A stretch of DNA of 32,000 bases from Rhodospirillales bacterium. GTDB lineage: Bacteria > Pseudomonadota > Alphaproteobacteria > Reyranellales > Reyranellaceae. Under the pieces are notes generated by a model that was given only the letters and a program-made list of their open reading frames with translations, searched no databases and was not told where the DNA came from. Made by a program: the position numbers and the translations under genes. Within the stretch, counting starts at the first letter, position 1; each line of letters starts with the position of its first letter. Positions 7,512 through 24,696 of this stretch are shown here, piece after piece. Location: assembly GCA_947466085.1 (NCBI GenBank), contig CANIEC010000036.1, positions 1 to 32,000 of the forward strand, given 5' to 3'.

Positions 7512-7588
<77 letters not shown>

Positions 7589-18711: not shown

Positions 18712-19089
18712 TCAGGAGCCTGAGTCGAACCCGTCCAGCCATTCGCGGGCTTTGTGCAGCTCGCGGAAGATCTTCACCGGGCGGTCTCCATCTGCCAGCG
18801 TCTCGAACAGGCGGGCCTGCTGGTAGGCGCGTTCGGTCACGGCGATGATGGCGAGGGGGCCGAGCGTCGCGATCTTCATGTAGGCGCGGATACGAGCGCC
18901 GAGCGCCATCATGTCGGCGTCGCTCAGCATCATGCTGGCTTGCGTCGTGTCGAATATCTTTCGGTAGGGCAGGGCATCGGCGACGGTCACGCCGTCGAGA
19001 TAGGCTTCGACATCCGCGAGCCGCAGCTCGTCCTGCGCGACGGCAATCACGAGGCGGTGCGGGTTGGAGATTGTCCACTGGACCGGCAT
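18712..19089 (-). CDS. Hypothetical protein, paralog of 1658-2110 (possible STAS/SpoIIAA-like fold)
   Basis: 125 aa. 43/119 identical, without gaps, to the product of 1658-2110. Last gene of the minus-strand cluster 18712-22988. Confidence 0.65.
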   Translation of the reverse strand: MPVQWTISNPHRLVIAVAQDELRLADVEAYLDGVTVADALPYRKIFDTTQASMMLSDADMMALGARIRAYMKIATLGPLAIIAVTERAYQQARLFETLADGDRPVKIFRELHKAREWLDGFDSGS

Positions 19090-20954: not shown

Positions 20955-21338
20955 TTAGCGAACCGTGAGGAGCTCGTCTTCAAGCTGGGCGTTGGAGCGG
21001 GCCGGTGTGCGGAAGTACCACCAGTTCTTCTGGGCGGTCCAATGTTCCTTGCGCGCCGTGCCGCCGCCCCAGACGCAGCGCTTGAAGTCGCGCGTCGCGG
21101 CCATGAAGACCCGGTCGGCCTCGTCGAGCTTCAGCGCGTGGTCGCCCATCTCCTCGCGGCTGAACATCGGCAGCGCCTCGAGGATCAGCTCGCGCACGTC
21201 GACGTCGTTCAGCCAGTTGTCGAGGTCGAACGTGTAGCCCTCCCGCTCCAGATCGCCGGCGAAAGTCGCCCACTGGTCGATCAGTTCCTGCAGGTCGGCC
21301 ACGTTGGGCGGGCCGGGCGGTGGTAATGGCGGGTTCAA
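20955..21338 (-). CDS. Acidic cytoplasmic hypothetical protein (127 aa), translationally coupled to the upstream gene; candidate inhibitor/immunity partner
   Basis: TTG start at 21338 overlaps the upstream TGA (TTGA) and is preceded by AGAGGGA. No signal peptide. About 23 D/E versus 14 K/R by my count. No family recognised. Confidence 0.55.
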   Translation of the reverse strand: MNPPLPPPGPPNVADLQELIDQWATFAGDLEREGYTFDLDNWLNDVDVRELILEALPMFSREEMGDHALKLDEADRVFMAATRDFKRCVWGGGTARKEHWTAQKNWWYFRTPARSNAQLEDELLTVR

Positions 21339-21796
21339 TCGTTCCCTCTTTCGGATTGCCGGCGGAAGTAGCGCTCGCCGTCGTTGGGTTTGAAAAAGGT
21401 GCGTATGACGCCGTTGGCATTGAAGGCGATGAAGGCGCCAGTGTCACGGTCGAAGCGCGTGACGACGCCGTCACGCCGCACCGTCTCGAGGATCGGTCCG
21501 CCGGATTTGGCGTCCCGCAGCAGCTGCGCCTGCCGAAGATAGTCCTGCTTGGTGATGCGACCGAACTCGGCACCGTGTTTCTGATAGTGATCGTCCAGGC
21601 GGCGCTGGTCGGCGAAGCCGACGCTCGCGCCCCAGCCCTGGCCCGCCTCGCGCGTCTCGGCGGAAATCGCAGGACCGCGCGCGGCCTCGCGCTGTCCGCG
21701 TTCGGAGGTCTGTGTCCAGAAGAGGAAAATCGCGACCGCCGCCAGCGCCGCCGTCAGCAGACGGCGCCACGGCAAGCCGCGGGTGCGGAGGTTCAT
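21335..21796 (-). CDS. Membrane-anchored/exported basic hypothetical protein with KHGxEFG...TFFKP C-terminal domain (candidate nuclease/toxin-like domain)
   Basis: ATG at 21796, 4 nt after the puuD-like stop (the listed start at 21832 is TTG). MNLRTRGLPWRR plus helix LLTAALAAVAIFLFW, then a low-complexity linker, then DDHYQKHGAEFGRITKQDYLRQAQLL...NANGVIRTFFKPNDGERYF. Confidence 0.6.
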   Translation of the reverse strand: MNLRTRGLPWRRLLTAALAAVAIFLFWTQTSERGQREAARGPAISAETREAGQGWGASVGFADQRRLDDHYQKHGAEFGRITKQDYLRQAQLLRDAKSGGPILETVRRDGVVTRFDRDTGAFIAFNANGVIRTFFKPNDGERYFRRQSERGND

Positions 21797-21800
21797 ACCC

Positions 21801-22988
21801 CTATTGTGCGCCGCCTTTGAACCAGCGCGCAATCATGCGGCGCTCGGCGTCGGTGATGTTCGTCATGTTGCCGGGCGGCATGACGCGCGAGGCGGCGGCC
21901 TGCTGGTTGATGGCCGCGGCCATGGCGTGAATTTGTGCTGGGGTCTCGAGCAGGAGTCCCTTGGGCGGCGCCAGGAAGCCCTCCTGGGTGGGCTTTGCGG
22001 CATGACAGGACGTGCAGCGCGCCTGGATGATGGGCTGGACCTCGGCGAAGGCCACCGGTCCGCCGCCGTCGGCGCTTGGCCTCGGCAGCGAAAGAAGTGC
22101 CGTGATGGCGATGAAGACGAAGCCCGCTGCGAGGACCAGCGGGTTGGCGTTACCCTTGTGGCGCTGGACGAACCAGACGCGGATCAGGGCGCCGGCGATC
22201 GAGATCGTGAGCAGCAGCACCCAGTTCCACTCGTGGCCGTAGAGGCCGGCATAGTGGTTGCTGATCATCGTGAACAGCACGGGGAGTGTGAAATAGGTGT
22301 TGTGGACCGAGCGCTGGCGGCCCCGCAGCCCGTGGATCGGGTCGGGAATCCGGCCCTCTTCCTTGGCCTTCACCAGCTCGCGCTGGCCCGGGATGATCAC
22401 GAAATAGACGTTCAGCACCATGATGGTGCCGAGCATGGCGCCGAAATGGATGTAGGCGCCGCGGCCGGAGAAGATGTGGCAAAGCGCCCAGGCGGCGGCG
22501 ACGCAGTACAGGAAGATGAGCCCGCCCAGCACGACATCGTCCTGGCCCAGGGTCGAGCGGCAGAGAAAGTCGTAGACCAGCCATCCCAGCACGAGGAACC
22601 CGAGCCCGATGGCGATCGCCTGCACCTTCGTCAGCGGCAGGACCGACGGATCGATCAGCGCGACCTCGGCGCCGTAGTAATAGACGAGGCAGAGCAGGAA
22701 GAAGCCGGTGACGAGCGTCGTATAGGCTTCCCACTTGAACCAGTGCAGCTCGGGCGGCAGCCGCTCCGGCGCGACCTTGAACTTCTTGGCCGTGTAGAAG
22801 CCGCCGCCATGGACCGCCCAGACCTCGCCGCCGATTCCCCTGGCCTCGTCGGCCGGATCGAGCGGCTTGTGCAGGTGGTTATCCAGCCAGATGAAATAGA
22901 AAGAGGCGCCGATCCAGGCGATGCCCACGATCATGTGAGCCCAGCGCAGCAGCAGATTCAGCCAGTCTATGACGAAAGCGGCGTCCAT
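21801..22988 (-). CDS. puuD: PuuD-like integral-membrane cytochrome c (urate hydroxylase family)
   Basis: ATG at 22988 (MDAAFVIDWLNLLLRWAHMIVGIAWIGASFYFIWLDNHL). Multiple TM helices. C-terminal heme c motif CTSCH. The listed 558-aa ORF was trimmed. Confidence 0.75.
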   Translation of the reverse strand: MDAAFVIDWLNLLLRWAHMIVGIAWIGASFYFIWLDNHLHKPLDPADEARGIGGEVWAVHGGGFYTAKKFKVAPERLPPELHWFKWEAYTTLVTGFFLLCLVYYYGAEVALIDPSVLPLTKVQAIAIGLGFLVLGWLVYDFLCRSTLGQDDVVLGGLIFLYCVAAAWALCHIFSGRGAYIHFGAMLGTIMVLNVYFVIIPGQRELVKAKEEGRIPDPIHGLRGRQRSVHNTYFTLPVLFTMISNHYAGLYGHEWNWVLLLTISIAGALIRVWFVQRHKGNANPLVLAAGFVFIAITALLSLPRPSADGGGPVAFAEVQPIIQARCTSCHAAKPTQEGFLAPPKGLLLETPAQIHAMAAAINQQAAASRVMPPGNMTNITDAERRMIARWFKGGAQ

Positions 22989-23012
22989 GAACTCTCGTAG
23001 CGCCTTGCCGGG

Positions 23013-23030
23013 TACCGCCTCAAGGCGGTA
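23013..23030. promoter_or_regulatory. Palindrome TACCGCC-TCAA-GGCGGTA in the 88-bp divergent puuD-like/aceB intergenic region
   Basis: Perfect 7-bp arms with a 4-nt spacer, read directly. Operator function is a guess. Confidence 0.25.
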
Positions 23031-23076
23031 AATCGCCCTTTCGACTGAAACCGAACGAATTTCGAGGGGAACGACG

Positions 23077-24696
23077 ATGGCGGCTTTGGACCTTCCTGCA
23101 GGTGTGACGATCGACGGCGCCCTCAAGCCCGGTTTCGAGAAGGTGCTCACGAAAGAGGCAGTCGCCTTCGTCGCCGACCTGCAGCGCAAGTTCAACGCCC
23201 GCCGCGAGGAGCTGCTGGCCCTGCGCGTCGAGCGCCAGAAGCGCCTCGATGCCGGCGAGAAGCCGGATTTCCTGCCGGAAACCGCGAAAATCCGCGAGAG
23301 CGACTGGACGGTCGCGCCGCTGCCCAAGGACATCCTGGACCGCCGGGTCGAGATCACCGGGCCGGTCGACCGCAAGATGATCATCAACGCGCTGAATTGC
23401 GGCGCCAATGTCTTCATGGCGGACTTCGAGGACGCCTCGACCCCGACCTGGGCCAACATGGTCGAGGGCCAGTACAATCTGGCCGACGCGGTCCGCCGCC
23501 AGATCGACTATGTCGATCCGGTCAGCGGCAAGGCCTACAAGCTGAATGAAAAGACGGCGGTCCTGTTCGTGCGTCCGCGCGGCTGGCACCTGCTCGAGAA
23601 GCACATGACGGTCGACGGCAAGCCGATGTCGGGGTCGCTGTTCGATTTCGGCCTCTACTTCTTCCATAACGCCAAGGAAGCGCTGTCGCGCGGCACCGGG
23701 CCGTACTTCTACCTGCCCAAGATGGAGAGCCATCTCGAGGCGCGCCTCTGGAACGACGTGTTCGTGGCCGCGCAGGACGCGCTCGGCGTGCCGCAGAAGT
23801 CGATCAAGGCCACGGTGCTGATCGAGACGATCGTCGCCACCTTCGAGATGGACGAGATCCTGTGGGAGCTGAAGGACCACTCCGCCGGCCTCAATTGCGG
23901 CCGCTGGGATTACATCTTCTCCTTTATCAAGAAGTTCCGCGAGCAGGAGTGGGCGGTGCTGCCCGATCGCGGCACGGTCGGCATGACCTCGCATTTCCTG
24001 CGCTCCTACAGCCAGCTCGTGATCAAGACCTGCCACCGCCGCGAAGTGCATGCGATGGGCGGCATGGCGGCGCAGATTCCGATTAAGAACGATCCGAAGG
24101 CCAACGACGAGGCGATGGGCCGCGTCCACGCCGACAAGAAGCGCGAGGCCGGCGACGGCCATGACGGCACGTGGGTGGCGCATCCCGGCCTGGTGCCGAT
24201 CGCGAAGGCCGAGTTCGACGCGGTCATGAAGGAGGCCAACCAGATCGCGCGCAAGCGCCAGGACGTGCACGTCACGGCCGCCGACCTGATCCAGATCCCC
24301 ACCGGGCCGAAGACCGAGGCGGGCCTGCGCCAGAACGTGGCCGTCGGCATCGGCTATGTCGAGGCGTGGCTGCGCGGCATCGGTTGCGTGCCGCTGTTCA
24401 ACCTGATGGAAGACGCCGCCACCGCCGAGATCAGCCGCGCGCAGGTCTGGCAGTGGGTGCGCCACAACCAGAAGCTCGACGACGGGCGCGCCATCACCAA
24501 GGAATTCGTGCGCCAGATCGTGCGCGAGGAGAACGACAAGGTGAAGGCGCAGATCGGCGAGGAAGCCTATGCCAAGGGCCGCTACGAGGATGCGGCCCAG
24601 CTGATGATCGACCTGGTCGAGCAGCCGCAGTTCTACGAGTTCCTGACCTTGCCGGCGTACGATCGCATCATCGCCGACGAGAAAGCGGCCGCCTGA
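23077..24696 (+). CDS. aceB: Malate synthase A
   Basis: 539 aa, collinear with E. coli AceB as I recall it: [73 protein letters not shown]. Confidence 0.95.

Follow-up and report, generated by a model that had tools for sequence, protein, structure and literature searches.

Two overlapping genes, which we call A and B, occupy positions 20955-21796 of the window, the 32,000-nucleotide stretch of contig CANIEC010000036.1 that we analysed from a Rhodospirillales bacterium of the Reyranellaceae (assembly GCA_947466085.1). Gene A (21335-21796; this gene, its partner and all features within them lie on the minus strand) runs from an ATG at 21796 to a TGA at 21335-21337 and encodes 153 residues, and gene B (20955-21338) encodes 127 residues from a TTG start, as read from the sequence and a list of its open reading frames (ORFs). 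The TTG of B overlaps the TGA of A in the tetranucleotide TTGA (21335-21338), and a Shine-Dalgarno-like AGAGGGA (21343-21349) lies inside the end of A, 4 nucleotides ahead of the TTG. A first-pass annotation, made from the letters alone, had described both ORFs, the overlap and the in-gene AGAGGGA, all of which were present at the positions it gave, and had suggested that the pair encodes an exported basic nuclease or toxin with an acidic cytoplasmic inhibitor. Homologues of A and of B have the same lengths as the window proteins and aligned N-termini, and both start codons are therefore supported. From homology, predicted structure and gene order, we think it probable that an enzyme and its inhibitor are encoded here as a two-gene module.

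The C-terminal part of A, residues 57-153 (21338-21628), was identified as an RNase-type domain by AlphaFold2, a match to chain A of PDB entry 8EY4, and Foldseek. The domain is basic (net charge +4, isoelectric point (pI) 9.85). An AlphaFold2 model built with 40 homologues was confident for residues ~57-150, with a predicted local distance difference test score (pLDDT) of 86-92 per 10-residue block, and contained helices at residues 64-78 and 83-95, strands at 102-106, 112-116, 122-125 and 131-135, and a helix at 140-152, which correspond to a pre-alpha helix, an alpha helix, four beta strands and a C-terminal helix. When A alone was searched against PDB sequences, 8EY4 chain A was the sole significant relative (E 7.5e-5), and the A family profile matched the same chain at E 3.7e-11 with 28% identity, covering chain residues 11-88. 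This 88-residue 'PT-VENN domain-containing protein' is a CdiA toxin fragment from a contact-dependent inhibition (CDI) toxin-immunity complex of E. coli O32:H37. Foldseek comparison of the AlphaFold2 model of A, a predicted structure, with the PDB also ranked 8EY4_A at the top (E 2.6e-5, target-normalised TM score 0.82, root-mean-square deviation (rmsd) 1.9 Å over 84 columns), followed by the colicin D tRNase domains 5ZNM, 1TFO, 1TFK and 1V74 (probability 0.97-1.0), and there was no credible match in the PDB beyond 8EY4 and the colicin D domains. Among predicted viral structures, the best match was a 456-residue phage protein (E 1.2e-9, rmsd 1.1 Å) and the second was a protein named 'Colicin D'. 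The toxin type of E. coli O32:H37 P4 CdiA has been tabulated as 'COG5529, RNase, entry via SbmA' (PMC11630599), and many A homologues are labelled 'pyocin large subunit-like protein' by JGI, which is the COG5529 name.

These comparisons of sequence and modelled fold indicate that A carries a COG5529-type, colicin-D-like (BECR) domain of predicted RNase activity, with residues of the catalytic type intact, and the first-pass annotation, which had likened the C-terminus of A to colicin-D-like BECR RNase domains, was right in this respect. Pfam Colicin_D, one of the families it had proposed to search, did not match: a Pfam scan of A returned no family at E up to 10, an NCBIfam scan was likewise empty, and for 40 diverse A relatives no relevant Pfam family, Colicin_D included, was among the families listed at E up to 1. 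By every sequence test, A falls outside the Pfam Colicin_D, barnase and RelE families.

Conservation and the alignment with 8EY4 point to a predicted active site with two motifs, H70-Y-Q-K73-H74-G-A-E77 on the pre-alpha helix (21566-21589) and I131-R-T133-F-F-K136-P137, with its conserved threonine, on strand beta-4 (21386-21406). Across 40 diverse members of the family, down to 48% identity, H70, H74, A90, R94, F122, T133, F135, P137 and Y143 were invariant, and the positions conserved at 90% or more included K73, G75, E77, F78 and D95. The motifs H-x-x-K-H-G-x-E-F and I-R-T-F-F-K-P...Y-F, singled out by eye in the first-pass annotation, thus hold invariant or near-invariant residues of the family. 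In the AlphaFold2 model, the pre-alpha helix carries H70, K73, H74 and E77, and the final strand carries T133 and K136; the pre-alpha motif aligned with HWTKHGKEF of 8EY4 and the beta-4 motif with PRTMFKP. The Tox-ColD motif has been given as '[KH]K, Hxx[ED], [ST], [TS]xxK', with K607, K608, H611, D614 and S677 in colicin D (Zhang et al., 2012, PMC3482391). H70..K73-H74-x-x-E77 and T133-x-x-K136 of A, which are conserved across the family, appear to fit this pattern, and by motif order and position in the secondary structure they may be equivalent to the colicin D residues. A bioRxiv preprint describes a 'Colicin-like' BECR group with pre-alpha + alpha + beta1-4 topology, in which the pre-alpha helix bears a lysine followed by the catalytic histidine and beta-4 contributes additional residues, and the placement of Lys-His and of the beta-4 residues in A matches this description. 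The His/Lys/Glu/Thr set common to the A family, 8EY4 and the Tox-ColD pattern is invariant or nearly so across phyla, as an active enzyme would lead one to expect.

The remainder of A conforms to the layout that had been drawn from its sequence, a basic N-terminus, one hydrophobic segment and a linker ahead of a C-terminal domain of ~95 residues, as judged by sequence and AlphaFold2. Residues 1-27 (21716-21796) consist of a basic stretch, MNLRTRGLPWRR, followed by a hydrophobic one, LLTAALAAVAIFLFW, and AlphaFold2 predicted a helix at residues 10-37. Residues 28-56 (21629-21715) form a low-complexity linker that varies in length and composition and is the sole poorly conserved, indel-rich part of the family alignment; pLDDT values below 50 at residues 32-56 mark it as disordered. 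The hydrophobic segment comprises just 15 residues, with no clear site for signal peptidase, and the N-terminus is predicted to be either a Sec signal anchor or a cleaved signal peptide. Four arginines precede the hydrophobic segment and, by the positive-inside rule, suggest that A is oriented with its N-terminus in and its C-terminus out.

Most relatives of A and B derive from metagenomes. One search for A homologues found 1809, of which the best 120 span 144-159 residues, and a search of 1.84 billion 50%-identity cluster representatives gave 2099 relatives at E ≤0.001, of which the best 150 were all short (70-257 residues) with the domain at the C-terminus. When 120 full-length 50%-identity representatives were sorted by a crude pattern search, 82 had an N-terminal hydrophobic segment and 23 a lipobox (105 together). 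Versions of A from Blastocatellia carry an LxxC lipobox (...LxxC-R-S/N) at the equivalent N-terminus, and 2 of 40 diverse A relatives matched the Pfam lipoprotein attachment site LPAM_1.

B is acidic (net charge -9, pI 4.6) and lacks a signal sequence, in agreement with the charge near -9 and the cytoplasmic location assigned to it at first pass. As a single sequence it had no relative in Pfam, NCBIfam or the PDB, and a profile of 15 diverse B family members found none in the PDB at E up to 10, in a set that included the other chain of 8EY4. B together with 14 diverse homologues gave no meaningful Pfam match (best E 0.075, scattered), and Pfam scans of B and its homologues detected no recognisable domain, a DNA-binding domain included. 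The family is sizeable, with 324 homologues found by single-sequence search and 1137 by profile, and W23, Y35, L39, D40, N44, D45, D47, R49, D75, W90, G91, A95, E98, W100, W106, W107, Y108 and P112 are invariant across phyla. These residues define a signature that reads W23, Y35, L-D-(D/N)-(W/Y)-L-N-D-x-D-x-R, D75, C-(L/V)-W-G, E98-x-W and N-W-W-Y-F-x-x-P. We infer that B is a candidate cognate inhibitor or immunity protein of a previously undescribed family.

The linkage between A and B is near-obligate and tightly coupled. In a collection of ~186,000 species with one genome each, more than 545 loci encode an A relative, and we inspected the 80 best; B lay directly downstream of A in 79 of the 79 loci that had downstream DNA, and a 4-nucleotide NTGA stop/start overlap joined the genes in 69 of the 80. 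These loci span Reyranellaceae, Vineibacter, Blastocatellia and other lineages. Carriers of the pair that can be cultured include Reyranella massiliensis, R. soli and Enhydrobacter aerosaccus (L028, L029 and L067). In Blastocatellia and two other metagenome-assembled genomes (MAGs), the pair is retained although the flanking synteny has been lost, with A as a lipoprotein and with a B that is only 34-37% identical to the window protein. In three further, distant lineages of A, the next ORF downstream again belongs to the B family (hmmsearch E 1e-14 to 1e-31). Among 80 diverse metagenome loci, B was present in 71, across phyla, with its start -20 to +30 nucleotides from the A stop in 66 of those 71; seven of the nine loci without B end too soon after A, and the remaining two belong to a subclade in which B lies 1.6-2 kb downstream, past two inserted opposite-strand genes. 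The co-conservation on which the first-pass annotation had made its pairing depend was thus found, with B adjoining A in essentially every informative locus across phyla. Charge complementarity is also family-wide, with a median of +3 for the A domain and of -5 to -6 for B.

Two details of these loci deserve mention. The subclade with separated genes, whose A proteins end in '...YFWRQARR', has a flavodoxin-like protein of 190-197 residues and a short-chain dehydrogenase between A and B (locus L144, 3249-4937; locus L193, 2173-4154). Six loci come from MAGs titled 'Asaia bogorensis', 'Rhizobium sp. Q54' and 'Heliomicrobium' (L008, L021, L043, L051, L080 and L082), and these titles look like taxonomic mislabels; L008, L021, L043 and L051 show Reyranella-type synteny and 81-99% protein identity, and L080 and L082 encode a lipoprotein A.

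The same type of domain occurs in phages. On IMG/VR contigs, Phage_Mu_F proteins and portal-NUDIX fusion proteins, 400-1220 residues in length with fusions of up to 1218, carry it at their extreme C-terminus, in versions that are 27-37% identical to the A family (hmmsearch E 1e-14 to 1e-27; loci L090-L118). Like A, these phage MuF toxins have a small partner gene, but the carrier is Phage_Mu_F or portal-NUDIX and the partner is an overlapping small Cys_rich_CPCC zinc-ribbon ORF, never B (L096-L117; for example, L103 2786-4294 and L099 1859-4312). The Cys_rich_CPCC ORF is a candidate for a different immunity family. A phage origin of B was considered and rejected, as no B relative turned up in IMG/VR.

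In Reyranellaceae the gene order is malate synthase (on the opposite strand), puuD, A, B, enoyl-CoA hydratase and a zinc-type alcohol dehydrogenase/quinone oxidoreductase. puuD encodes a membrane cytochrome-c urate hydroxylase; the pair lies 4-7 nucleotides downstream of it, and gaps within the Reyranellaceae A-B cluster are 4-12 nucleotides. A scan of this strand between puuD, A, B and the enoyl-CoA hydratase gene, which is uninformative for this host, found no promoter- or terminator-like signal, and co-transcription of these four genes is compatible with the arrangement. Outside Reyranellaceae, the 71 ORFs that neighbour the pair at 18 non-redundant loci belong to 77 Pfam families, each found in at most three ORFs. 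A general link to purine catabolism, suggested by puuD, xanthine permease and malate synthase, was rejected because it holds for Reyranellaceae only, the 18 other lineages having no common neighbour family. Recent horizontal transfer or an island was likewise rejected, on the grounds of native GC content, conserved synteny and the lack of any mobile-element family among the commonest neighbour families.

Some features of the surroundings stand apart from the pair. In some Reyranella a xanthine/uracil permease gene lies between malate synthase and puuD (L001 3427-4788, L002 and others); the window (21801-24696) and several close relatives, such as L005, L007 and L008, lack it and have malate synthase and puuD as direct divergent neighbours, a presence/absence polymorphism within a fixed order. 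The mechanically called puuD ORF (21801-23477, minus strand) starts at a TTG at 23477, encodes 558 residues and overlaps the start region of malate synthase; puuD homologues have 395 residues, tblastn identity extends over 395 residues, and translation probably begins at the ATG at 22988. An ORF of 125 residues (18712-19089, minus strand) sits beside the alcohol dehydrogenase-type gene, downstream, at a position kept in L001 (8706-9083), and has no Pfam family on record. The only Rfam or ARAGORN match in the window is tRNA-Arg(CCG) (7512-7588, minus strand). Colicin D cleaves tRNA-Arg, and the proximity of this tRNA gene to a colicin-D-like gene is probably a coincidence.

Several characterized systems resemble the pair in part. 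CdiA-CT/CdiI of E. coli O32:H37 P4 has a homologous toxin domain and a small partner gene immediately downstream, and CdiA-CT and A both hold the H..KHG.EF and RT.FKP..Y motifs; its domain, however, forms the very end of a giant CdiA protein that is exported by type V secretion and also contains domains for receptor binding and entry, whereas A is a Sec-anchored protein of 153 residues with a linker only, and CDI toxins are polymorphic whereas A-B is not. Colicin D shares with A the pre-alpha helix, alpha helix and four-stranded sheet and appears to match it in having a Lys-His pair in the first of these helices and a hydroxyl residue in beta-4, and colicin D/ImmD shares with A-B the combination of a basic enzyme and an acidic inhibitor encoded downstream. 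Colicin D is plasmid-borne and has receptor and translocation domains, whereas A-B is chromosomal and has neither; in addition to the missing Colicin_D match of A, B has no Pfam match, a result that covers ImmD and Imm64 if the library holds them. Barnase/barstar is similar in logic, as the RNase, which belongs to the wider BECR assemblage, is exported, basic and metal-independent and the inhibitor is acidic and intracellular, but neither A nor B had a Pfam match to either protein and A is tethered rather than released. To our knowledge, tight translational coupling is not a feature of barnase/barstar. Lipoprotein toxins such as SitA of Myxococcus, whose immunity partner is SitI, are also like A-B in their signal, their C-terminal toxin domain of nuclease type and the cytoplasmic immunity gene that follows, but SitA requires the TraAB exchange machinery.

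With respect to polymorphic toxin systems, the combination of a signal peptide, a toxin domain and a downstream immunity gene has already been catalogued for Tox-ColD, where it is listed as 'T2SS' (type II secretion system) (Zhang et al., 2012, PMC3482391). Such signal-peptide-only 'T2SS-type' toxins are like A-B in having a Sec or lipoprotein signal, a C-terminal nuclease-type domain and a downstream cytoplasmic immunity gene; they are polymorphic and often multi-copy and island-borne, however, whereas A-B is present as one conserved copy among housekeeping genes with no recognisable transfer machinery. A-B has the downstream partner gene by which polymorphic toxin systems are recognised (Zhang et al., 2012), and an immunity function of B would be in keeping with this arrangement. 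Polymorphic toxins combine variable C-terminal toxin tips with a conserved N-terminus for trafficking and diversify rapidly or exchange cassettes, whereas A shows the reverse, a conserved domain behind a variable N-terminus and linker. Of the delivery routes of polymorphic toxins, among them T5SS, T6SS, T7SS, Rhs, MuF and a Sec signal, A has only the Sec/lipoprotein-signal route.

In the enzyme-inhibitor module that we propose, A would be exported via Sec by its N-terminal basic and hydrophobic segment, or by a lipoprotein signal at the same position in other lineages, and would be tethered to the envelope by the flexible linker of ~30 residues, where it would present its ~95-residue metal-independent COG5529/colicin-D-like (BECR) RNase domain outside the cytoplasm. 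B would remain in the cytoplasm as an acidic protein, made in step with A through translational coupling at TTGA, and may bind the basic active-site face of the A domain and block the RNase. It would act in this as ImmD and barstar do on their enzymes, and would thereby shield the RNA of the producer from any A that has folded ahead of export or has come back into the cell. RNase activity and toxicity of A, binding between A and B, and inhibition by B are the parts of this reading that we infer.

What the module does for its host is less clear than its composition. Because of the homologues of the A domain, we favour an antibacterial toxin-immunity pair, a role to which we give slightly less than an even chance. 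A number of findings weigh against this role or against the module itself. An AlphaFold2 model of B built with 40 close homologues was unusable (pLDDT 51), so that its Foldseek matches were meaningless, and it offered no support for an A-B complex. B is also not universally required, as shown by an A-only clade with a '...RAA' C-terminus that has kept the catalytic residues and has no B in the sampled flanks (three independent loci, with up to ~4 kb sampled on each side). A proteins of this clade end in '...YF(W/R)RAA...', with 'APLS' and 'E..Q' replacing the usual motifs (L086 4001-4567; L199 987-1724; L201 4001-4507); upstream of their genes lies one for APH/DUF6285, and downstream a convergent one of the GntR or helix-turn-helix type. 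A metagenome scan seeded with this clade returned a broad sample of the clades that have both A and B. Furthermore, the pair is not polymorphic. In Reyranellaceae it occupies a single fixed syntenic site, and the ratio of nonsynonymous to synonymous substitution rates (dN/dS) was 0.11-0.125 for the A domain, 0.21-0.22 for B and 0.12-0.18 for four flanking metabolic genes, as estimated by the simple Nei-Gojobori method from 392 pairs among 32 Reyranellaceae sequences that are GC-rich and partly saturated; the values for A and B also indicate that both are genuine coding sequences. The base composition of the pair equals that of the window (GC fraction 0.667 for A, 0.664 for B and 0.664 for the window), A has no receptor-binding or translocation domain, and no secretion-system, phage or transposon family was among the commonest neighbours at the 18 non-Reyranellaceae loci. 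A-B is an autonomous two-gene module among ordinary genes, vertically inherited and under purifying selection, and its evolutionary behaviour is unlike that of colicins, CDI toxins and other polymorphic toxins.

Much of this evidence would suit a barnase/barstar-type safety pair, in which the biochemistry is as proposed above but A is an envelope RNase with a non-antagonistic job, such as clearing the periplasm of RNA that gets in, nucleotide scavenging or an attack on foreign nucleic acid as it arrives, and B guards the cytoplasm from A that folds before export. This explanation, which we consider somewhat unlikely, is kept alive by the lack of a delivery route, the tether, the core-gene behaviour and the A-only clade: the pair has one Reyranellaceae site, neighbour-like dN/dS and native GC, there is neither a delivery domain in A nor a secretion or mobile gene nearby, and A is always held by an anchor or lipobox plus linker instead of being freely secreted. 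The position 4-7 nucleotides past puuD in Reyranellaceae, with a xanthine/uracil permease adjacent in some genomes, would also suit such a job, but the link to purine genes is confined to that family and absent in the 18 other lineages, and all relatives that are characterised or annotated by context, namely CdiA-CT O32:H37, colicin D and the phage MuF toxins, are conflict toxins. Two further explanations fit poorly. That the BECR domain of A has lost catalysis or been repurposed, for example to bind RNA or the envelope, with B as a partner such as an export chaperone or regulator and not an inhibitor, would accord with the dissimilarity of B to any known immunity family, with the lack of conservation of R94 and D95 of the A family in 8EY4, and with the absence of toxin-like evolutionary dynamics. 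We nevertheless regard it as improbable, because the His/Lys/Glu/Thr set held in common with 8EY4 and Tox-ColD is near-invariant across phyla and stoichiometric neutralisation would suit both the conserved pairing of a basic with an acidic protein and their coupled translation. Still harder to credit, and in our view very improbable, is a module of the classical type II toxin-antitoxin or abortive-infection kind, at work in the cytoplasm of the producer. The two small overlapping genes, the RNase fold common with RelE-type toxins in the wider BECR assemblage, and chromosomal, stable inheritance are as expected for such a module; type II systems, however, combine a cytoplasmic toxin with a DNA-binding antitoxin, whereas A carries an export anchor or lipobox, as do most members of its family, and B has no recognisable domain and, in Pfam scans, no detectable DNA-binding domain. 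The neighbours moreover showed no PADLOC-style defence context, although the PADLOC library itself was not searched.

The analogy to colicin/immunity and barnase/barstar drawn in the first-pass annotation therefore holds in part: domain, fold and pairing agree with it, whereas polymorphism, a delivery domain and a mobile context are lacking and an A-only clade exists. What is novel is the B family and its pairing with a domain of this type, as the architecture itself was already known, and what is unusual is the non-polymorphic, core-gene evolution and the wide distribution. The A-B pair is widespread in soil bacteria and is inherited like an ordinary core gene. One possibility, which we hold to be unlikely, is that A-B is a domesticated, vertically inherited, non-weapon module of the envelope in many soil phyla; its RNase might destroy nucleic acid that enters the periplasm, or might be a fail-safe by which the cell's own tRNA is cleaved on failure of Sec export or of B. 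If true, a fold that is otherwise familiar from interbacterial and phage conflict would here be put to housekeeping or self-surveillance, and B would be a new dedicated RNase-inhibitor family.

Through this analysis, two unannotated families, with at least ~1800 homologues of A and ~1100 of B, gain a name and a testable function. B is a new candidate inhibitor family for COG5529/colicin-D-like RNases and may offer a new model of RNase-inhibitor recognition. Finally, a toxin-type domain here behaves like a stable core gene although no delivery apparatus accompanies it, and one may ask whether minimal Sec-tethered 'toxins' get to a target at all and, if so, by what route.

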